A stretch of 64,000 nt of DNA from Xanthobacteraceae bacterium (GCA_050010715.1 JBEKKM010000005.1:18687-82686); one strand, 5' to 3'. Shown: positions 3,667-31,545, counted from the stretch's first letter. Numbers and translations: made by a program. Notes: generated by a model not told the origin, from the sequence alone.

Positions 3667-4457
3667 CGCCCAAACTCGAAGCCCAGGACATCCGGCTTAG
3701 CTATTCGCAGCCGCGCAGCGGCACGCAGCTTGTCGCGATCGACGGCGTCAGTCTGCAAGTGATGGACGGCGAGTTCGTCGCTATCGTCGGTCCATCGGGC
3801 TGCGGCAAGACGACGTTTCTGTCCGTGGTCGATGGCCTGATTGCCGCGACCGGCGGCCGCGTGCTGGTCGACGGCGAGGTGGTGACGCGGCCCGGTCCGG
3901 ACCGCACCGTAGTGTTCCAGGATGCGTCCTTGCTGCCGTGGCGCACCGTGCTCGGCAATGTGCGTTACGGCCTCGAATGCCTTGGCGTCGGCACCCGCGA
4001 GGCGGACGCGCGCGCGGAAAAACTCATCGCGCTGGTCGGGCTTTCGGGCTTCGAGCATCACTATCCGCACGAACTCTCCGGCGGCATGCAGCAGCGGGTG
4101 AACCTCGCCCGCGCGCTCGTGGTCGATCCGAAAATCCTACTGATGGACGAGCCGTTCGCTTCGCTGGATGCGCAGACCCGCGAGCTGATGCAGGAAGAGC
4201 TCACCCGTATCTGGGCGCAGGCGCGCAAGACCGTGCTGTTCATCACCCACCAGATCGACGAGGCGATCTATCTCGCCGACCGCGTGGTGGTTTTTTCGGG
4301 CCGCCCCGGCAAGGTCAAGGACAGCATCGCGGTCGATATCGAGCGACCGCGGCCGATCGGCGTGAAGCGCCAGGCGCGCTTCCATGCACTCGAAGATCGA
4401 ATCTGGGGGTTGATCGACGAGGACGTTAAGACGAAAGCGCGAGTCAAACCATCATGA
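3663..4457 (+). CDS. ABC transporter ATP-binding protein
   Basis: Walker A GPSGCGKTT, signature LSGGMQQR, Walker B LLMDEPF. ATG 3663 overlaps the preceding stop (ATGA); ORF-track start is 3642. Confidence 0.92.
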   Translation: MTPKLEAQDIRLSYSQPRSGTQLVAIDGVSLQVMDGEFVAIVGPSGCGKTTFLSVVDGLIAATGGRVLVDGEVVTRPGPDRTVVFQDASLLPWRTVLGNVRYGLECLGVGTREADARAEKLIALVGLSGFEHHYPHELSGGMQQRVNLARALVVDPKILLMDEPFASLDAQTRELMQEELTRIWAQARKTVLFITHQIDEAIYLADRVVVFSGRPGKVKDSIAVDIERPRPIGVKRQARFHALEDRIWGLIDEDVKTKARVKPS

Positions 4458-4458
4458 T

Positions 4459-4490
4459 CGTCACCCCCGGGCTTGACCCGGGGGTCCATG
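4459..4490 (+). repeat. 32-nt hairpin repeat unit (GTCA - 9-bp stem - CTTGA loop - stem - TCCATG)
   Basis: CGTCACCCCCGGGCTTGACCCGGGGGTCCATG lies directly after the ATPase stop. Stem 4463-4471 pairs with 4477-4485. A near-identical copy is at 31504-31535 on the other strand. Confidence 0.8.
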
Positions 4491-4533
4491 CTGCGCTTCA
4501 GCTTGCGGTAATGACAACACGAGGGAGAGCGTC

Positions 4534-5535
4534 ATGCAGGCCTTGAGCCGCTGGTCGATTCTGGCGGCAGCGGTGCTCATCGCGCCGATGGCGCGCGCCG
4601 ACGACCTCGCCCCATTCAAGATCGGCATTTCCGCGCCCGTCGTGACCATCTTCCCGGTCTGGATGGCGCAAGCGGCCGGTCTTGACGCCAAGGAAGGGCT
4701 GAAGGTGGAATCCATCAGCATGGAAGGCGGCAGCCGCGGCGTGCAGGTGCTGTTGTCCGGCGAAATCCAGGCCATGCATGTCGGGCTGGCGCCGGTGGTG
4801 CAGGCCAACAAGCAGGGCGCCGACCTCCGCCTCGTCACCTCGACCGCCAACACCATCCCGATCACGATCTTCGCCTCGCCGGCGATCAAGACCGCGGCCG
4901 ACCTCAAGGGCAAGACCATCGGCATCAGCACGTTCGGCTCGGAAACCGACGTGGCGGTGAGCATCGCGCTGCAACGCCTCGGGCTCAAGCGCGACGATGT
5001 CACCGTGTCGCAGATCGGCGGCTCATCGCAGCGCTTCGGTGCGCTGATTGCTGGCCGCATCGATGCCGCGCCGCTGCTCGAGCCCACCATCACCGCGGCG
5101 AAGGAAAAAGGCTTTACGCCGCTGCTCGATCTCGCCGCCGCCAACACGCCGTGGATCTTTGATGGTGTGGTAGTGACCAACGCCTACCTGAAAGCGCACC
5201 GCGACGCGCTCACGCATTTCGTGCGCGCGTATATTGCCGGCGCCTACCTGGCGCTGTCCGACGTCGACAAGGCGAAGGCGCTGATCGCGCAAAAATACAA
5301 GACCAGCGATCCAACGGTGATCGACGCCACCTATAACGACTTCAAGCGGCTGATGCCGCACGATGCCGCGCCGTCCATCCCTGGCGCCAACAATGTCATT
5401 GCCCAGCTTCAGGCCATCGGCATCGAGGTCAGCAACAAGAACATCAGCGACTATGTCGATCTCGGCATCATCGAAGGCCTGAAGAAGGACGGCTACTTTG
5501 AGCAGATGGCGAAGGCCTATCCCGTAAAACAATGA
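4534..5535 (+). CDS. ABC transporter substrate-binding protein (NMT1-like), with signal peptide
   Basis: 333 aa. Signal-like MQALSRWSILAAAVLIAPMARA. Stop overlaps the hyuB start (ATGA at 5532-5535). Confidence 0.85.
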   Translation: MQALSRWSILAAAVLIAPMARADDLAPFKIGISAPVVTIFPVWMAQAAGLDAKEGLKVESISMEGGSRGVQVLLSGEIQAMHVGLAPVVQANKQGADLRLVTSTANTIPITIFASPAIKTAADLKGKTIGISTFGSETDVAVSIALQRLGLKRDDVTVSQIGGSSQRFGALIAGRIDAAPLLEPTITAAKEKGFTPLLDLAAANTPWIFDGVVVTNAYLKAHRDALTHFVRAYIAGAYLALSDVDKAKALIAQKYKTSDPTVIDATYNDFKRLMPHDAAPSIPGANNVIAQLQAIGIEVSNKNISDYVDLGIIEGLKKDGYFEQMAKAYPVKQ

Positions 5536-7304
5536 ACGCCATCGATCTCGAAGTCATCTACCAGTCCACCTTGCAGATCGCGCGCGAGCTGACGCTCAAC
5601 ATGTTGCGCACCGGCTATTCCACCATCATCAAGGAAAGCCAGGATTTCACTTTCGCCATCTTCGACGCGCAAGGCCGCATGGTGGCGCAAGGCATCCCGC
5701 AGCCGCTGCATATCGGGCCGCTCGCCGCCCAGGTAAACGAAATCCGCCGCCGTTTTCCTGATGCCGCGCCTGGCGACGCCTTCATCGTCAATCATCCCTA
5801 TCAGGCCTGCCAAAACCATTCGACCGACGTCTGCATTATCACGCCGATGTTCGTCGACGGCCGCCTCGTCGGCTATATCGGCAACACTGCGCACAAGCCC
5901 GATCTCGGCGGCAAGGTGCCGGGCACAAATGCGGGCGACGCCACTGACCTCTTTCAGGAAGGCTTGCTCATACCGCCGCTGCGCATCCTGCGGCGCGGCG
6001 AGTTGCTCAGCGATATCGAGCGGGTGATCTGCGCCAATACCCGCACGCCGGAAGTCACCTGGGGCGACATTACCGCGCAGGTAAATACCAACACCTATGG
6101 CCTCACGCGGTTCGCCGAGCTGTTCGGCAAATATGGCACCGACAAAGTGCTCGCCTGCTGGCAGAGCTGGATGGATATTTGCGAAACCGCATTGCGCAAG
6201 GAAATCGCCAAGGTGCCCGATGGGCTTTACGGCCCGGAGAGCGATTACCTCGACGACGACGGCATCGATCTGAACAAATCCTACCGCATCTCGGCGACCC
6301 TCGAAGTCAAGGGCGACATCCTGCACTTTATCCTGGACAGCGATGCGCAGGCGCGCGGGCCGATCAACCTGCGCCCTTGCGTGTCGAAGAATTTTATCCA
6401 GTGCCTGGTCAAGATGGTGTTCATCCCGAACCTGCCGGTGAACGATGGGCTATCGCGGCCGGTGCAGGTGTCCTATCCGCCGGAAGGCTCGCTGCTCAAT
6501 CCGCGCTTCCCGGCGCCGGTGAACATGTATGTGCGCCCGAGCCAGGTCACGACCTCGGTCGCGATCCGCGCCCTGGCGCGCGCCGTGCCCGGCAGGGTGC
6601 CGGCGCCGGGCAGCGCCGCCGGCGGCTCGATCTCCAGCGCCGGGCGGCATCCGCAAACCGGCCGCTGGTATTCGCAATACGAGATCTTGAGCGGCGGCAC
6701 CGGCGCGCGGCCCGACGGCGACGGCGTCAGCGCCATGGATGAGCTGGTCGTCAATGTGATGAACACGCCGGTCGAGGCGGTCGAAAGCGAATTTCCGGTG
6801 CGCGTCGAACGCTACGAGCTGGCGCAGGATTCCGGCGGCCCCGGCACCTTCCGCGGCGGTCTCGGCGTGCGGCGGCAATGGCGCATTCTCGGCGACGAGT
6901 CGGTCATCAACTTGCGCACCGACCGTTTCAAGTTCTCCTCGCTGGGAATCTTTGGCGCCAAGCCGGCGCATGTCTCGGCCGCCTCCCTCAAATCCGTCGG
7001 CGAAGCAGCGCGGCCGCTAACCTCCAAGGTCGCCGGCTTGCGGCTGAAAAAGGACGATGTGCTGTCGATGGAATTCGCCGGCGGCGGCGGCTGGGGCGAT
7101 CCGCACCAACGCGCGGCGGAGCGTGTGCGCGACGACGTGGTGCGCGGCTATGTCTCGCGCGGGGCGGCGCGCGACGATTACGGCGTCGCCTTCAAGGATG
7201 ACTTGAGTGTGGATGCCGATGCGACCGCAAAACTGCGGGCCAAGTCCGAGGCCAAGTCTGAGGCCAAGTCTGAGACCAAGCCCGCGTCCAAGGCCGCCTC
7301 ATGA
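5532..7304 (+). CDS. hyuB: Hydantoinase B/oxoprolinase family protein
   Basis: 590 aa. N-terminus DLEVIYQSTLQIARELTLNMLRTGYSTIIKESQDFTFAIFDAQGRMVAQ is typical of HyuB. Translationally coupled to hyuA (ATGA 7301-7304). Confidence 0.9.
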   Translation: MNAIDLEVIYQSTLQIARELTLNMLRTGYSTIIKESQDFTFAIFDAQGRMVAQGIPQPLHIGPLAAQVNEIRRRFPDAAPGDAFIVNHPYQACQNHSTDVCIITPMFVDGRLVGYIGNTAHKPDLGGKVPGTNAGDATDLFQEGLLIPPLRILRRGELLSDIERVICANTRTPEVTWGDITAQVNTNTYGLTRFAELFGKYGTDKVLACWQSWMDICETALRKEIAKVPDGLYGPESDYLDDDGIDLNKSYRISATLEVKGDILHFILDSDAQARGPINLRPCVSKNFIQCLVKMVFIPNLPVNDGLSRPVQVSYPPEGSLLNPRFPAPVNMYVRPSQVTTSVAIRALARAVPGRVPAPGSAAGGSISSAGRHPQTGRWYSQYEILSGGTGARPDGDGVSAMDELVVNVMNTPVEAVESEFPVRVERYELAQDSGGPGTFRGGLGVRRQWRILGDESVINLRTDRFKFSSLGIFGAKPAHVSAASLKSVGEAARPLTSKVAGLRLKKDDVLSMEFAGGGGWGDPHQRAAERVRDDVVRGYVSRGAARDDYGVAFKDDLSVDADATAKLRAKSEAKSEAKSETKPASKAAS

Positions 7305-9385: not shown

Positions 9386-10816
9386 TCAGCTCACCAGCAC
9401 GTTGCTGAACTGCCAGGGGTCTTTGCTGTCCACCGTTTCGGGGAACAGGCGGTTGCGGCCCTTCAGCGGCGTCCAGTCGGTGTAGCGGCCGATCACCGGC
9501 CCGAGATAGGGCCGCTGGATTTCTAGGCAGCGGCGAGAATCCATCTCGTCGGCCTCGACGATGCCGCGGTCCGGGTTCTCCAGCATCCACACGATGCCGG
9601 CGAGCACCGCCGAGGTCACCTGGAGTCCGGTCGCGTTCTGATAGGGCGCGAGCTTGCGGGTCTCCTCGATCGAAAGCTGCGAGCCGTACCAATACGCGTT
9701 CTTGGCATGGCCGTAGAGCAGCACGCCGAGCTCGTCGATGCCGTCGACGATGTCGTCCTCGCTGAGGATGTGCCAGGACTGCTGCGGCTTCCATTCCGCG
9801 CCGGCCAATTCGTGCAGCGACAGCACGGCGTCGTCGCACGGATGGTAGGCGTAATGGCAAGTCGGCCGGTAAACCACCTTGCCGTTATCACACAGCGTGA
9901 AGTAGTCGGCGATCGAGATCGACTCGTTGTGGGTGATCATCCAGGCCTGTTGGGCGCCGGCGGTCGGCGTCCACGAGCGCACCCGCGTGCCGGCGCCGGG
10001 CCGCGTCAGGTAGATCGCGGCATCGCAGCCGAAATCGTGGCGCTGCCCGCCGGGCGGCAGCGTCTTCTCGTGGGTGCCCCAGCCGAGCTCCGACGGCTGC
10101 GAGCCTTCGGCGATAAAGCCCTCGACCGACCAGGTATTGATGAATTTTCCGCGCGGCTTGGGCGCGGACGCCCGCTGGGTATCCCGCTCGGCGATATGGA
10201 TGCCCTTGACGCCGGCGCGCTGCATCAGCCGCGCCCAATCCTCGCGCGAGGCCGGCGCGGCAAAGTCGAGTTTCAGCTCGGCGGCGACGTCGGTCAGCGC
10301 CTGCTTGACCATCCAGGACACCATGCCCGGATTGGCGCCGCAGCAGCTCACGGCGGTGATGCCGCCCGGCCGCCGGCGACGCAGGTCGAGCACGCCTTCG
10401 CGCAGCGCGTAGTTCGAGCGCTCCGAGATCGAACGGCGGCTGTCGGTGTAGAGGCCGGGCCACGGCTCGACCACGGTGTCGATGTAGAAGGCGTCGATGT
10501 CCTTGGCGAACTCCATCAGATCGACCGAGGAGGTGTCGACCGACAGGTTGACCATCATGCCGCGGCCCGGGCCGGCGGTGAGCAATGGCTTGAGCACGTC
10601 GCGATAGTTTTCGCGGGTGATCGCCTGATGCAGGAATTTGATCTGGCGCTCGTCGAGCAGCGCCCGGTCGCGGTCGTCGGGTGCGATGACGGTGAATTTC
10701 GCGTGGTCGAACGCGACGTGCCGCTCGATCAGCGGCAAGGTACCCTTGCCGATCGAGCCGAAGCCGATCATCACGATGGGGCCGTCGAAGCGGGCGAGCA
10801 GCTGGGAGTCCTTCAT
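9386..10816 (-). CDS. hss: Homospermidine synthase
   Basis: From the internal ATG at 10816 the product is 476 aa. It starts MKDSQLLARFDGPIVMIGFGSIGKGTLPLIERH, matching the bacterial Hss N-terminus as I remember it. The 505-aa ORF-track version has an unlikely N-terminal extension. Confidence 0.88.
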   Translation of the reverse strand: MKDSQLLARFDGPIVMIGFGSIGKGTLPLIERHVAFDHAKFTVIAPDDRDRALLDERQIKFLHQAITRENYRDVLKPLLTAGPGRGMMVNLSVDTSSVDLMEFAKDIDAFYIDTVVEPWPGLYTDSRRSISERSNYALREGVLDLRRRRPGGITAVSCCGANPGMVSWMVKQALTDVAAELKLDFAAPASREDWARLMQRAGVKGIHIAERDTQRASAPKPRGKFINTWSVEGFIAEGSQPSELGWGTHEKTLPPGGQRHDFGCDAAIYLTRPGAGTRVRSWTPTAGAQQAWMITHNESISIADYFTLCDNGKVVYRPTCHYAYHPCDDAVLSLHELAGAEWKPQQSWHILSEDDIVDGIDELGVLLYGHAKNAYWYGSQLSIEETRKLAPYQNATGLQVTSAVLAGIVWMLENPDRGIVEADEMDSRRCLEIQRPYLGPVIGRYTDWTPLKGRNRLFPETVDSKDPWQFSNVLVS

Positions 10817-28031: not shown

Positions 28032-28400
28032 ATGGACGAAATCGCAGTAGGCAAGCTGGCTGACATCGCCGACGGCGATTATCGGGTATTCGCCGTGGAA
28101 GAGCTCGAAGTCGGCATCTTCCGCACCGGCAGCAAGGTGCTGGCCTACGAAAACGTCTGCCCGCATGCCGGCGGCCCGGTCTGCCAGGGCAAGATCTTCC
28201 ATCAGGTCGAGGAAATCATCACCCCCGACAAGAAGAGCGCGGGGCTGCGCTTCGGCAAGCAGCGCCACATCGTCTGCCCCTGGCACGGCTACGAATTCGA
28301 CCTCGCCACCGGCTGCCACCCGGGCGACGCCTCGGTGCGGCTGACGCCAGTGAAAGTCGCCGTGCGCGACGGGCAGATCTACGTCAGCGTGCCGCGCTAA
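28032..28400 (+). CDS. Rieske (2Fe-2S) domain protein
   Basis: 122 aa. CPHAGGPV...CPWHGYEF (CxH...CxxH). Confidence 0.9.
   Translation: MDEIAVGKLADIADGDYRVFAVEELEVGIFRTGSKVLAYENVCPHAGGPVCQGKIFHQVEEIITPDKKSAGLRFGKQRHIVCPWHGYEFDLATGCHPGDASVRLTPVKVAVRDGQIYVSVPR
28353..28394 (+). repeat. Direct repeat, left copy (3' end of Rieske gene)
   Basis: AAAGTCGCCGTGCGCGACGGGCAGATCTACGTCAGCGTGCCG; 40/42 identical to 29699-29740. Confidence 0.95.
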
Positions 28401-28411
28401 GCTGCTGCGTT

Positions 28412-29635
28412 TCAGGCTTCCCTTTCACGCCGCATATAGGCCCGGACCTCGCCATCGAGGTCCAACGTCGCGCAGACGGCAATCAAAAGCGACACGGCGC
28501 CAATAGGGAGCGGCGCCGGGAAACGGGCCGCAAACATTTCCCAAGTCACCATGACGATCACAAGATAGCAGGCGCCGGCCAGCATGGTGCGCGAGAGAAC
28601 GCGGTCAATATATGCCGCGGTCGCCTCACTCGGCTCCAGCTTCGCAATCGATCCGCCATATTTTCTCAGGCCGTCGGCCATCTCCTCCGGATCGAACAGC
28701 AAGGCGGTGTAGAGAATTGCGCAGCCAAAGAGCAGCAGCGCATAGACGATCAAGTGCAAAGGCCGGCCGTATCGCAGAGAGACGGCGATGACAGTCGCCC
28801 AAGATGCGCCCTGCGCGACAGCGAAATTCAACAGCGCGACCACCGCGCTCATGATCCACGACGCCAGTAGGACGGGGATGATGCCCGCGCCGTTGAGCTT
28901 CAACGGCAGATCCACCGTTTGCGCGGCGAAAGTCCGCGCCCCGATCCGGTGCTCGGGATAGTCGATACGAATGAATCGCCGCGCCCGCTCTATCAACACG
29001 ACGAAAACGGCAAGGCCGACGACGAACAACACCAGCGTATTGATCCGGTCGCTCGACATCACGCCCTGACGGCCGGCCTCGAACACGTCAGCGACTCTGT
29101 TCGGCAACGCAGTGACGATGGGCACAAGAAGCAGCAGGACAAGGCCGTTGCCGACGCCGCGCAGGGTGATTTGTTCGCTCAGCCAAACCAGGAACAGTGT
29201 GCCGCCGATCAACGTAAGGGTGGTCGAGAGTGTGAACAGCCAAGACGGTGCGGCCACGATGCCGGGCACACTCTCAAGCCCGATTGCGACTCCCGAGGCC
29301 TGCCCAGCCGCGAGCAACACTGTGAGAACGCGTGTCATTCGATCGATGGTACGGCGGCCCCGAGCGCCGCTCTGCTTCAGCGCTCTCAGTCGTCCCGACA
29401 CCAGCGTAAGAAGCTGAAGGATGATCGCCGCCCAAACATAGGGAAGAATGCCAAGCGCGAAGATCGCCAGGCGATGGATGCCATTAGGGCTGCCGCGGTA
29501 AAGCTCCTCCAAAGCCGCTGGATCGAGGCCCGGCAATGGCACAAAAGTGCCGAACCGATAAACAAGGAGCGCGCCGACGGTGAACGCAATCCGCCATGCA
29601 AACTCTATCATGGTGCGCTCCCAACCCGCGACCAT
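28412..29635 (-). CDS. Divergent SecY-like protein-conducting channel paralogue
   Basis: 407 aa, collinear with SecY across TM1-TM10. Matching segments: FTVGALLVYRFGTFVPLPGLD, IFALGILPYVWAAIILQLL, GGTLFLVWLSEQITLRGVGNGLVLLL, LPLKLNGAGIIPVLLASWI and FDPEEMADGLRKYGG. Not in a ribosomal-protein operon context. An alternative start is ATG 29611. Confidence 0.8.
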   Translation of the reverse strand: MVAGWERTMIEFAWRIAFTVGALLVYRFGTFVPLPGLDPAALEELYRGSPNGIHRLAIFALGILPYVWAAIILQLLTLVSGRLRALKQSGARGRRTIDRMTRVLTVLLAAGQASGVAIGLESVPGIVAAPSWLFTLSTTLTLIGGTLFLVWLSEQITLRGVGNGLVLLLLVPIVTALPNRVADVFEAGRQGVMSSDRINTLVLFVVGLAVFVVLIERARRFIRIDYPEHRIGARTFAAQTVDLPLKLNGAGIIPVLLASWIMSAVVALLNFAVAQGASWATVIAVSLRYGRPLHLIVYALLLFGCAILYTALLFDPEEMADGLRKYGGSIAKLEPSEATAAYIDRVLSRTMLAGACYLVIVMVTWEMFAARFPAPLPIGAVSLLIAVCATLDLDGEVRAYMRREREA

Positions 29636-29698
29636 GTTAATGCCAGCCCGCGATCCGCGGCAAGACAGAAGCGGTGTCTGTATAGGATGGACGCCGAC

Positions 29699-29740
29699 AA
29701 GGTCGCCGTGCGCGACAGGCAGATCTACGTCAGCGTGCCG
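29699..29740 (+). repeat. Direct repeat, right copy (overlaps 3' end of GMC oxidoreductase gene on the other strand)
   Basis: AAGGTCGCCGTGCGCGACAGGCAGATCTACGTCAGCGTGCCG followed by AAGTAG. Encodes KVAVRDRQIYVSVPK-stop in an otherwise non-coding plus frame. Confidence 0.95.
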
Positions 29741-31433
29741 AAGTAGCGGAGATTTCGCGCAGCATCGCGTCGGCGAGTTTTTCCGCGACCATAATGGTCG
29801 GAATATTGGTGTTGCCGCGCGGGATCGTCGGCATAATCGAGGCGTCGATGACGCGCAAACCGTCGACGCCGTGAACGCGGCCGGCCGGATCGGTCACGGC
29901 GTCGCGATCGCCGGATGCGCCCATGCGGCAGGTTCCGACCGGATGGAACGTGCCGCCGACGTTGTCGCGAATGTAATCGGCCAGCGCGGCGTCGTCTTTG
30001 GCCAATGCCGCAAGATCGACGCGCCGGTCGGCCAGCGTGGCAAAAACCGGCGCCGCGAGCGGCGGCACCATGTCGATCAGCGCCGCGATCGCCGCGCTCT
30101 TGATCCGGTTGGCCGGCGTGATGCGATTGAGCCGCCGCAGCCGGTCGTTGAATTTGACCGGGAAGGTCAGCCGCGTCATGGCCCGCACCGCATCGTGGGC
30201 CAGAATGTCGATACAGAGGCGAAAGCCCTGCATGAAGCGTTTCAGGTCGAGCTCGTGGCCGGTGAAATTGAATTCAACGCGCGGATAGATCGCGGCATTG
30301 GCCGAGACCAACGACACGCGGCCGCGCGCCATCGGCTTGAGCAGTGACGGCGCCAGATTGGCGACCTGGCGGCCGAGCGGACTCCACGACGTCTTGCACT
30401 GCACGTTGAGATACATGTCGGCCGCCGCCGCGCCGGGCAGGCCGGAGGAATAGCGAAACGCCGACATCGGATGCGGCCGGATATTTTTCGCTTGCCGCTG
30501 GCCGGGCTTCTGTAGCAAGCCGATGAAGACGATGGCGTGGTTGGAGAGGTTTTCGCCGACGCCCGGAAGATCTGAGCGCACGGCAATGCCGAGGTCACGC
30601 AGCGCCGCCGCCGGGCCAAGTCCCGCGCGCATAAGAAATGCCGGCGAATGGATGCCGCCGAGCGCGATGATGATCTGGCGTCCGTAGAACGCTTTCTCCT
30701 CGCCGCCGATCCTGGCCGTGACACCGGTGGCACGACGCCCCTCGAACATAAGGCCGGTCACCAAGGCGTCGGTGCGGATCGTAAGATTGGCGCGGCGGCG
30801 GACATCGGCACCGAGATAGCAGATCGCCGCCGAGGCGCGTTTTTGCGGCCAATTGCTCATCGGCACCGCGCCATAGCCGTCGCGAAAATCGGCATTCATG
30901 TCGGCGATGAACGGCATCTGCCGCTCTTGTGCAAAAGCGTGCACTGCCTTCGCCAGCGGCGCCCAATCGTCGGTCGTGGTGCGGCGGATCGGCACCGGCC
31001 CATCCTTGCCGTGCAGCGCGCCGTCGAAATCGAAATCGTTCTCGAGCTTGCAGTAATAGGGCAGCACGTCGTCCCAACCCCAACCGGCCGCACCAAGCGC
31101 CTGCCATTCGGCATAATCGTCGGGCGTGCCGCGATAGGCGACCATGCCCATCACAGAACCGCCGCCACCCATGATGCGGCCTTGAGAAAATCCGACAAGC
31201 GGCGAGTTGTCCTTGCGCCGCCAGTGCACCTTCAGCTCGGGCCAAAAATAGGCGTCGTTGTAGTAGGACTGCGGATAGCTATCGAGCACATCGGCCGGCT
31301 CGGCGCCCGGCGGCGTGTCGCGGCCGGCTTCGAGCAACAGCACGTTCAAGCCCGAGCGCGCCGACAACCGGTTCGCCAGCACGCAACCCGCCGCGCCGGC
31401 GCCGACGATGATGATGTCGAAGGTCTCGGTCAC
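29730..31433 (-). CDS. GMC family oxidoreductase (choline dehydrogenase-like)
   Basis: 567 aa. FDIIIVGAGAAGCVLANRLS FAD motif. C-terminal GTCRMG...HGVDGLRVIDASIMP. Confidence 0.92.
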   Translation of the reverse strand: MTETFDIIIVGAGAAGCVLANRLSARSGLNVLLLEAGRDTPPGAEPADVLDSYPQSYYNDAYFWPELKVHWRRKDNSPLVGFSQGRIMGGGGSVMGMVAYRGTPDDYAEWQALGAAGWGWDDVLPYYCKLENDFDFDGALHGKDGPVPIRRTTTDDWAPLAKAVHAFAQERQMPFIADMNADFRDGYGAVPMSNWPQKRASAAICYLGADVRRRANLTIRTDALVTGLMFEGRRATGVTARIGGEEKAFYGRQIIIALGGIHSPAFLMRAGLGPAAALRDLGIAVRSDLPGVGENLSNHAIVFIGLLQKPGQRQAKNIRPHPMSAFRYSSGLPGAAAADMYLNVQCKTSWSPLGRQVANLAPSLLKPMARGRVSLVSANAAIYPRVEFNFTGHELDLKRFMQGFRLCIDILAHDAVRAMTRLTFPVKFNDRLRRLNRITPANRIKSAAIAALIDMVPPLAAPVFATLADRRVDLAALAKDDAALADYIRDNVGGTFHPVGTCRMGASGDRDAVTDPAGRVHGVDGLRVIDASIMPTIPRGNTNIPTIMVAEKLADAMLREISATSAR

Positions 31434-31444
31434 TATTTCCCCTG

Positions 31445-31534
31445 GTCATTGCCGGACTTGATCCGGCAATCCATAGGGCACCGCAGATCGTTTGGCGATT
31501 CAGCATGGACCACCGGGTCAAGCCCGGTGGTGAC
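31445..31534. repeat. Composite palindromic repeat: two CTTGA-loop hairpin units in inverted orientation
   Basis: Plus-orientation unit GTCATTGCCGGACTTGATCCGGCAATCCAT (31445-31474). Inverted unit CATGGACCACCGGGTCAAGCCCGGTGGTGACG (31504-31535). Confidence 0.85.
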
Positions 31535-31545
31535 GACCAAAGAAA

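Follow-up and report, generated by a model that had tools for sequence, protein, structure and literature searches.

Genes and repeat at the locus

The window analysed here is a 64,000-nucleotide (nt) stretch of a Xanthobacteraceae bacterium genome (GCA_050010715.1, JBEKKM010000005.1:18687-82686), in which a gene for a short SecY-like protein lies between the converging ends of a Rieske ferredoxin gene and a GMC-family oxidoreductase gene and is bracketed by a direct repeat. The open reading frames (ORFs) in this part of the window encode an amidohydrolase, orf115, the Rieske protein, the SecY-like protein, the GMC oxidoreductase and LepA, and the Rieske gene is the last member of an amidohydrolase-orf115-Rieske unit. 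A first-pass annotation, made from the sequence alone, had named the Rieske, SecY and GMC genes, and all three identities are backed by Pfam. The coordinates of the features are collected in Table 1, and loci of related genomes and metagenomes are referred to below by L numbers.

Table 1. Features of the SecY-like gene locus in the window (positions counted from the first letter of the window; aa, amino acids)
Feature	Position	Strand	Basis
Rieske [2Fe-2S] ferredoxin gene, 122 aa	28032-28400	+	ORF; Pfam Rieske, E = 3e-12; orthologues 85-98% identical in 44 loci
Left, functional copy of the duplicated Rieske tail (core 28353-28394)	28343-28394	+	Repeat search and local alignment
11-nt spacer between the convergent Rieske and SecY-like stops; presumed left edge of the inserted DNA	28401-28411		ORF positions
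Short SecY-family paralog, 399 aa (407 aa from the alternative ATG at 29635); presumed inserted cargo	28412-29611	-	Pfam SecY, 243 bits
5' leader/upstream region of the SecY-like gene	29612-29689	-	Alignment of upstream regions; conserved across the clade
Putative relic (pseudo-3'-end) of the ancestral Rieske gene (core 29699-29740; old stop TAG 29744-29746)	29690-29746	+	Non-coding on the + strand
GMC-family FAD oxidoreductase gene, 567 aa	29730-31433	-	ORF; Pfam GMC_oxred_N/C

The direct repeat was recovered exactly where the first-pass annotation had placed it, at 28353-28394 and 29699-29740, with 40 of 42 positions identical. Weaker similarity had been described for about 12 nt further left; local alignment showed that it is present but reaches approximately 10 nt with one 1-nt indel, giving a unit of about 52 nt whose extended copies (left 28343-28394, right 29690-29740) match at 47 of 52 positions. 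In both copies the identity stops abruptly at GTGCCG.

As had been proposed, the left copy forms the 3' end of the Rieske gene, whose ORF ends in KVAVRDGQIYVSVPR followed by the stop. The right copy reads KVAVRDRQIYVSVPK and a stop in a plus frame that is otherwise open only as an antisense ORF inside the SecY-like gene, and in its plus-strand reading, which ends in DADKVAVRDRQIYVSVPK before the stop, it is matched by tblastn to a C-terminal Rieske fragment. The last codon and stop of the functional Rieske gene (CGC TAA) lie outside the repeat; the right copy has AAG TAG instead. The right copy was also said to supply the end of the GMC gene, and it does so with the last three codons and the stop (29730-29740, with the stop as TCA at 29730-29732). 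The GMC stop falls at the same position of the right copy in L084 and L085, and the ancestral 17-nt overlap between the GMC gene and the Rieske frame is retained as 29730-29746. Taken jointly with the insertion history argued below, the right copy is, with high probability, a non-functional relic of the original Rieske 3' end, and it is called the relic hereafter. The antisense ORF mentioned above, of 275 aa at 28919-29746 on the plus strand, traverses the SecY-like gene and finishes with the pseudo-Rieske peptide of the relic; it is almost certainly an artefact of high GC content and not a gene.

Two trivial origins of the repeat were examined. When the 64 kb was searched with the degenerate 42-mer at up to 3 mismatches, only the two sites were returned, and 100 dinucleotide-preserving shuffles gave no match at all. 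Related loci have one copy of the motif each and the window two, in every case as a Rieske tail or a relic, and the idea of a dispersed repeat was rejected for the window and the related loci alike. An independent metagenome contig from the Joint Genome Institute (L100), 99.65% identical to the window over 2,308 nt, carries both copies unchanged; therefore the repeat is not an assembly artefact.

The spacing on the left of the SecY-like gene agrees with the earlier description, with its stop 11 nt from that of the Rieske gene. The two stops are equally close in L081, L084, L097, L098 and L099. On the right, the distance from start codon to repeat is about 88 nt and not about 60 nt, the likelier start being ATG 29611 and not 29635. 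We regard ATG 29611 as the probable start because it has a GGGAG Shine-Dalgarno sequence, because most gene calls in relatives use it, and because the upstream ATG of L085 runs into a stop after three codons. The leader between this start and the relic holds two small hairpins (CCGCG-ATC-CGCGG and AGACA...TGTCT); it arrived with the insert and is conserved across the clade.

Related genomes retain the junction without the SecY-like gene

To look for the uninterrupted junction, a scan with the GMC protein, taking one genome per species, yielded 80 loci, all from Xanthobacteraceae/Hyphomicrobiales metagenome-assembled genomes (MAGs). Mapping by tblastn showed that 44 of the 80 carry both the GMC gene and the amidohydrolase-orf115-Rieske unit, and in none of these 44 does a SecY-like gene lie at the GMC/Rieske junction. 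The Rieske and GMC stops overlap in 10 of them (by 4 nt in 6, by 15 nt in 2 and by 17 nt in 2), are separated by a spacer of 27-125 nt in 21, and are parted by an insert of 0.6-7.7 kb in 13. The wider context LepA-GMC-Rieske-orf115-amidohydrolase is kept in L027, again without the SecY-like gene.

The overlapping junctions resemble the right side of the insert in the window. Positions 29701-29800, comprising the right copy and the GMC tail, align contiguously at 83-85% identity to the overlapping junction of L004, L006 and L009, and the junction positions that match the right copy also match the left copy. In L033 and L040 the Rieske/GMC overlap is 17 nt long, identical to the one that the relic reconstructs, and the GMC C-termini are homologous (ending ATPAN in L033 and L040 and ATSAR in the window). 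The contiguous alignment and the shared 17-nt overlap indicate that the ancestral state at this site was a convergent Rieske and GMC pair with overlapping ends. The first-pass annotation had read the locus as convergent overlapping genes separated by a one-gene insertion with a duplicated gene end, and the 10 genomes with overlapping ends and no SecY-like gene support this. It had also taken the duplicated DNA to be the overlap itself; the tail is indeed duplicated, but the unit is about 52 nt of the Rieske tail, of which the overlap accounts for only 17 nt, and GMC coding sequence takes up no more than 11 nt of the right copy.

The insertion appears to be old and of single origin

SecY-like homologues with 62-100% identity form one monophyletic clade, and the next-best proteins are at most 50% identical. 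All 13 other clade loci with sufficient flanks have the gene in an identical slot, between GMC and a convergent Rieske gene (L081/82, L084, L085, L086, L092-94, L096, L097, L098, L099, L100). We compared synonymous divergence (dS) and the ratio of nonsynonymous to synonymous divergence (dN/dS) by the Nei-Gojobori method. Between the window and L081 the dS of the SecY-like gene is 0.24 and that of the neighbours 0.24-0.27; the corresponding values are 0.31 and 0.26-0.46 for L084, and 0.43 and 0.29-0.56 for L086. The dS of the gene thus equals that of its neighbours, and therefore it co-diverged with its flanks. All genomes with an empty site are outgroups with a dS of at least 0.45 in both flanks, compared with at most 0.45 within the clade, and the inner group consists of the loci bearing the SecY-like gene together with L001 and L069. 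A metagenome scan with the SecY-like protein returned only 5 loci, each of which either has the gene in this slot or is too short to show its position, and no alternative context for the gene was found among them. Judged from these comparisons of sequence, the insertion is shown to be old, of single origin and vertically inherited within one Xanthobacteraceae sub-clade, and not a recent or recurring cassette.

Amidohydrolase dS was compared with GMC dS across 39 loci to see whether discordant flanks would betray homology-anchored recombination; the outgroups form a star-like radiation (dS 0.45-0.9) with no clear breakpoint assignable to the insertion. Within the SecY-like gene, the 3' half of L085 and L097 matches the window at about 92% and the 5' half at about 80%, and L099 shows the reverse; this mosaicism indicates that lineages have exchanged DNA inside the gene by homologous recombination.

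Split GMC, amidohydrolase or SecY-like ORFs occur in several long-read MAG loci (L085 at 4178-5882 and 6001-7225; L026, L040, L058, L068 and L080) and were left out as evidence of decay, sequencing error being possible. A tentative call of a SecY-like pseudogene in L085 was withdrawn, as the GMC gene on the same contig is also split and sequencing error is equally likely.

The right copy decays like a pseudogene fragment

Relics orthologous to that of the window are found in L084, L085, L093, L097, L098, L099 and L001. They have derived characters in common: one nucleotide is missing after GACGCC, and AAGTAG stands where the functional tail has CGCTGA. Their states form a series. The relic matches its own functional tail at 47 of 52 positions (about 90%) in the window and L100 and at 38 of 52 in L084. 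In L085, L093, L097 and L098 the right-hand 35 nt or so alone align to the functional tail (28-29 of 35-36 positions). L099 retains only the last 16 nt, followed by repetitive extragenic palindromic (REP)-like elements, and L081/82 only the left 20 nt or so, where a deletion into GMC leaves a 66-aa stub; nothing is recognisable in L086, L092, L094 and L096. The best-conserved stretch everywhere is GCGTCAGCGTGCC, which GMC uses for its last codons and stop. Such a pattern would be expected of a pseudogene fragment of which a part has been taken into use by the neighbouring gene.

The deletion in L081 and L082 (L081 5637-5980, L082 5214-5560) starts in the relic and takes most of GMC, leaving the N-terminal fragment upstream of an intact SecY-like gene.

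Two details set the relic of the window apart. Both window copies have ATC where clade relatives have ATT, and a Gly codon carries the window-type G in the window relic, with C kept in the relics of L084 and L001. These sites hint that gene conversion from the functional copy may have acted on the window relic; they number only 2-3 and are confounded by the mosaicism between lineages.

The cargo belongs to a family of short SecY paralogs

The SecY-like protein exceeds the PF00344 cut-off of 32 bits (Table 1) and passes TIGR00967 marginally (269.4 vs 253.6), and it failed both SecY2 models (NF009082, 120.9 vs 353; TIGR02920, 114.9 vs 249.6). It aligns to residues 12-418 of E. coli SecY and to solved SecY structures at E = 5e-82. 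Compared with E. coli SecY, it is 12 residues short in the periplasmic loop before the plug and is without the N- and C-terminal tails. At the position of E. coli R357 (motif PGIRPGE) it has a Glu (KLEPSE). This conserved loop-C5 arginine is needed in E. coli for SecA and ribosome coupling. Among 117 homologues, all proteins of 395-416 aa have E, A, D or T at the R357 position, whereas canonical SecYs of about 443 aa keep PGIRPGE.

The gene lies between GMC and Rieske, outside the rplO-secY-adk ribosomal operon, and no SecA-like neighbour was present in the Pfam-annotated neighbourhoods of the clade loci (L081, L084-86, L097-99). It is under relaxed constraint, with a dN/dS of 0.23-0.53, compared with 0.03-0.27 in the intact neighbours. 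Its GC content at third codon positions (GC3) is 0.735, compared with 0.80-0.86 in the flanks. A promoter and terminator scan of 28200-29900 found no promoter-like (sigma-70-like) site and four terminator-like matches, all in coding sequence and near the number expected from shuffles, so that the scan is uninformative. Since the stretch from GMC to the SecY-like gene has no predicted promoter or terminator, the latter gene is probably expressed by read-through from GMC, which is the simplest model.

No second SecY-like copy was found in the window. Short SecY paralogs are tightly packed elsewhere, behind a DUF2339 gene (L087 3681-4892) and behind an LplA-like gene (L088 5001-6233), and in L090 (5001-6236) one directly follows the canonical secY, to which it is 62% identical, in the order rplO-secY-secY'-adk. 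When the window and L090 copies were compared, the short pre-plug loop and truncated termini were seen in the window copy and less so in the L090 copy. From these sequences the short SecY paralogs appear to be a large, widespread, fast-evolving and uncharacterised family in Xanthobacteraceae and Hyphomicrobiales, and full-text literature searches turned up no account of SecY paralogs from this group.

Cargo turnover and small elements at the junction

Two close relatives that fall well inside the clade carry other genes in the slot. L001 has a class I methyltransferase gene, with the orthologous relic still beside GMC, and L069 has a MazE-like/PemK-type toxin-antitoxin pair; in both, the SecY paralog appears to have been replaced by other cargo. 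Outgroup cargo at the same junction comprises a TonB-dependent receptor, PKHD hydroxylase and TonB modules, an ABC transporter with a receptor, a DDE transposase fragment and a CMD-family gene.

In L010 (9690-11760) the slot is occupied by a 629-aa GSDH/cytochrome-c gene, which runs in the direction of GMC and has a 4-nt overlap with the Rieske stop. At or inside the GMC stop there is a degraded duplicate, at 63% identity, of the genome's own, PVPV-type Rieske tail (GGGTTCCGCCCGGCCGATTTACGTCAGC). This arrangement points to a possible second, independent tail-duplicating insertion, for which the evidence is weaker. A search for relics in the 13 insert-bearing loci found one in the expected place only in L001 (orthologous) and L010 (independent). 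Matches to the tail in L011 and L020 are far from the junction, look like GC-rich chance matches and were discarded.

Small palindromic elements were also seen at the junction. A 46-50-nt palindromic element resembling a miniature inverted-repeat transposable element (MITE; GGAGCATGATC..TTTTCGGAAAACCGG..CCACTTTTCCGGATCATGCTC) lies exactly between the Rieske and GMC stops in L002, L003, L016, L027, L030, L035, L039 and L051. It is flanked by TAA on both sides in L003 (9693-9742) and by a CTAA/CTAG pair in L002, and looks like an insertion into the overlapping stops. REP-like palindromes (GTAGCCCGGAT...ATCCGGGCTAC), single or paired, stand at the junction or beside the relic in L021 (approximately 9690-9795), L086 (approximately 5925-6000), L093 (2495-2590) and L099 (approximately 2873-2990). 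Those of L093 part the Rieske and SecY-like stops, widening the spacer, and the Rieske protein there comes to end in PK. Neither kind of element has a copy in the window.

Variation is also found at a second spot, the LepA-GMC intergenic region. In the window it is 112 nt long with small palindromes (31434-31545); in relatives (L084 1068-4200; L098 1055-1894; L099 719-1152; L081 5257-5640) it holds a CHAT-domain gene cluster, a GIY-YIG protein gene, a BrnT-like/DUF2283 pair or a 127-aa ORF.

A probable one-off insertion between overlapping genes

We consider it highly likely that the locus records an old insertion of one short SecY paralog, by which the Rieske tail was duplicated and the right copy left as a relic. 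In the ancestor of the sub-clade, the Rieske and GMC genes would have been convergent with a 17-nt overlap of their ends. The paralog would have entered in the direction of GMC, at a point some 52 nt before the Rieske stop, leaving two copies of the 52-nt tail. The incoming DNA would have supplied the left copy with a new last codon and a new stop, keeping the Rieske gene whole, and the right copy would have remained joined to GMC, which still terminates inside it. Selection would have retained only a product with both flanking genes whole. Vertical descent would have followed, in which the relic decayed neutrally except for the 11 nt used by GMC, the SecY paralog evolved under relaxed constraint and other cargo took over in some descendants.

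As to the mechanism, entry was probably a one-off, non-site-specific event of illegitimate recombination, either homology-anchored in the Rieske operon with an illegitimate joint or by duplicative break repair, the two routes being taken together in this estimate. The homology-anchored route would explain why the functional copy ends in PR and the relic in PK. A tandem duplication preceding the insertion is unlikely, since a 52-nt duplication within the gene would frameshift Rieske. Long target duplication and att-like recombination, which the first-pass annotation had offered as options, gained no support: as it had noted for the window, no integrase, transposase or terminal inverted repeat was seen there, and the same holds in all loci examined. 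Specifically, none of the Pfam-annotated neighbours in L081, L084-86 and L097-99 is an integrase, transposase or recombinase, and the annotated neighbours in every clade locus are LepA, GMC, Rieske, amidohydrolase, ECH and TctC. No inverted-repeat pair with arms at 28395-28411 and 29612-29698 was found, and no attC was found, there being only 11 nt between the SecY-like and Rieske stops.

Several points weigh against this account. No extant donor arrangement was found, that is, a SecY paralog next to a Rieske tail or gene outside the clade, which weakens the homology-anchored version, and any microhomology at the joint (about 29689/29690) is obscured by divergence. The 52-nt duplication is three times the overlap that selection would need to preserve. 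The L010 insertion also duplicated about 45 nt of tail, which could mean something more systematic than accident. The window relic is far better preserved than its orthologues, which neutral decay alone does not predict. Finally, most relatives are MAGs, some from long reads, so that frameshifts such as those in L085 may be sequencing errors, and recombination between lineages blurs the phylogeny.

The alternative suggested most directly by the repeat is a remnant of a site-specific integrative element, in which a tyrosine or serine recombinase island entered the Rieske 3' end and brought a replacement tail, giving attL and attR of about 52 nt, and later deletions spared the SecY-like gene only. 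Direct repeats of a gene's 3' end around foreign DNA, with the target gene intact, are a hallmark of such elements, and the locus has repeats derived from the target 3' end at both insert boundaries (47/52), ending abruptly at GTGCCG and of a length within the range of att identity segments. The diversity of cargo at the junction, including a toxin-antitoxin pair and a DDE transposase fragment, and the independent tail duplication in L010 would also fit. However, among the loci examined (the window, some 14 of the clade and the 13 others with inserts) none has an integrase or a remnant of one; trimming an island to one gene with margins of 11 nt and about 88 nt would need two precise deletions; and the clade has no presence/absence polymorphism of an excisable unit, the losses being replacements (L001, L069) or ragged deletions and the clean empty sites being confined to outgroups. 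This origin is therefore quite unlikely. Distinctly unlikely, too, is a dedicated capture site at which an unrecognised process repeatedly drops single promoterless genes downstream of GMC and regenerates the Rieske 3' end, although two independent events (the SecY paralog clade and the GSDH/cytochrome-c gene of L010) each duplicated about 45-52 nt and the short SecY paralogs, tight behind GMC, DUF2339, LplA-like and canonical secY genes, may be single-gene mobile units. That tight packing behind unrelated genes, together with a single cargo gene co-directional with its upstream neighbour and a GC3 below that of the flanks, would suit a recent mobile cassette that targets the junction and could recur elsewhere. 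Against such a cassette, which we hold to be very improbable, stand a dS the same as in the flanks, a single slot for the whole clade of 62-100% identity with the next homologues at 50% or less, and a window without a second copy, attC, terminal inverted repeat or recombinase.

Two further explanations concern the right copy itself. The polarity could be reversed, the SecY-like and Rieske genes being the original neighbours and GMC having arrived with a piece of Rieske tail from a donor with overlapping genes; a transferred GMC would carry such a piece, as its 3' end overlaps the Rieske tail in most genomes. This is scarcely credible, because GMC adjoins Rieske in 31 of 31 outgroup loci without large inserts, L027 keeps the full gene order without the SecY-like gene, and the only genomes with the SecY-like gene beside Rieske and no GMC are L081/82, in which the GMC N-terminal stub proves a secondary deletion. 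Alternatively, in the window lineage the right copy may have been kept functional, as part of the SecY-like promoter or 5' leader, as a GMC 3' signal or as an antisense or pairing partner of the Rieske tail, or may have been kept similar by gene conversion. It does lie in the GMC-SecY-like intercistronic region, and it is preserved at 47/52 where the orthologous relics, all from one event, are at 73% or less or gone; the ATC shared by both window copies and the window-type G in the Gly codon also point this way. Yet the relic is gone or replaced in L086, L092, L094 and L096 with GMC and the SecY-like gene intact, and so is dispensable; conversion has 2-3 informative sites; mosaicism between lineages offers another route to a less-decayed allele; and no promoter or terminator is predicted. 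We regard a retained or converted right copy as unlikely.

Comparison with known systems

The locus resembles several known systems in part. As in the attL/attR duplications of prophages, integrative and conjugative elements and islands in the 3' ends of tRNA, tmRNA or protein genes, a repeat of the target 3' end, tens of nt long, brackets the insert, the target gene is kept intact by a supplied replacement end, and identity stops abruptly at the repeat edge. Unlike those systems, it has no recombinase gene in any locus, a single 1.2-kb gene as its content, and no excision or other integration sites were seen; the insert has been inherited vertically for long and one repeat copy decays like a pseudogene. 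A direct duplication of the target flanks transposon and insertion sequence insertions as well, but the unit here is about 52 nt and not the usual 2-14 nt, and there are no terminal inverted repeats, no transposase and no ORF besides the SecY-like gene. With integron cassettes the locus shares a single, apparently promoterless ORF placed co-directionally downstream of another gene, but not an attC, intI, attI or array.

Homology-facilitated illegitimate recombination, in which a one-sided homologous anchor is combined with an illegitimate join, has been described for Acinetobacter, pneumococcus and Pseudomonas stutzeri. Such a process would set a foreign gene beside a conserved anchor such as the Rieske operon, would leave a fragment of the recipient gene at the joint and needs no mobility genes. 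It differs in that it more often deletes than duplicates recipient DNA, and here no donor arrangement was found and the junction is too old for microhomology. For the cargo, the closest parallel is the Gram-positive accessory Sec (aSec) system of SecA2/SecY2, in which, likewise, an additional SecY paralog, shorter and divergent, is encoded outside the ribosomal-protein operon. The window protein, in contrast, scores far below the SecY2 cut-offs, has no SecA2 or Asp neighbours, belongs to an alphaproteobacterial lineage and marginally passes the canonical SecY model.

Overall, the feature is the scar of an ancient insertion. Its form, an insert flanked by a duplicated gene end, is a familiar one, and the feature is neither an active nor a novel mobile system. 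It is a clean and datable example of a gene wedged between convergent genes that shared their last bases without either being broken, and of a spare tail copy that decays except for the few conserved bases that remain in use. In MAG-rich lineages, relics of this type can be used to mark the polarity and relative age of insertions. The locus also illustrates that gene-end junctions, once opened, become hotspots for accessory genes, and it cautions that a repeat-flanked single gene need not be a mobile cassette. The larger lead is the cargo family: if these short SecY proteins are functional, they would represent an undescribed accessory or regulatory form of translocon in Gram-negative bacteria.

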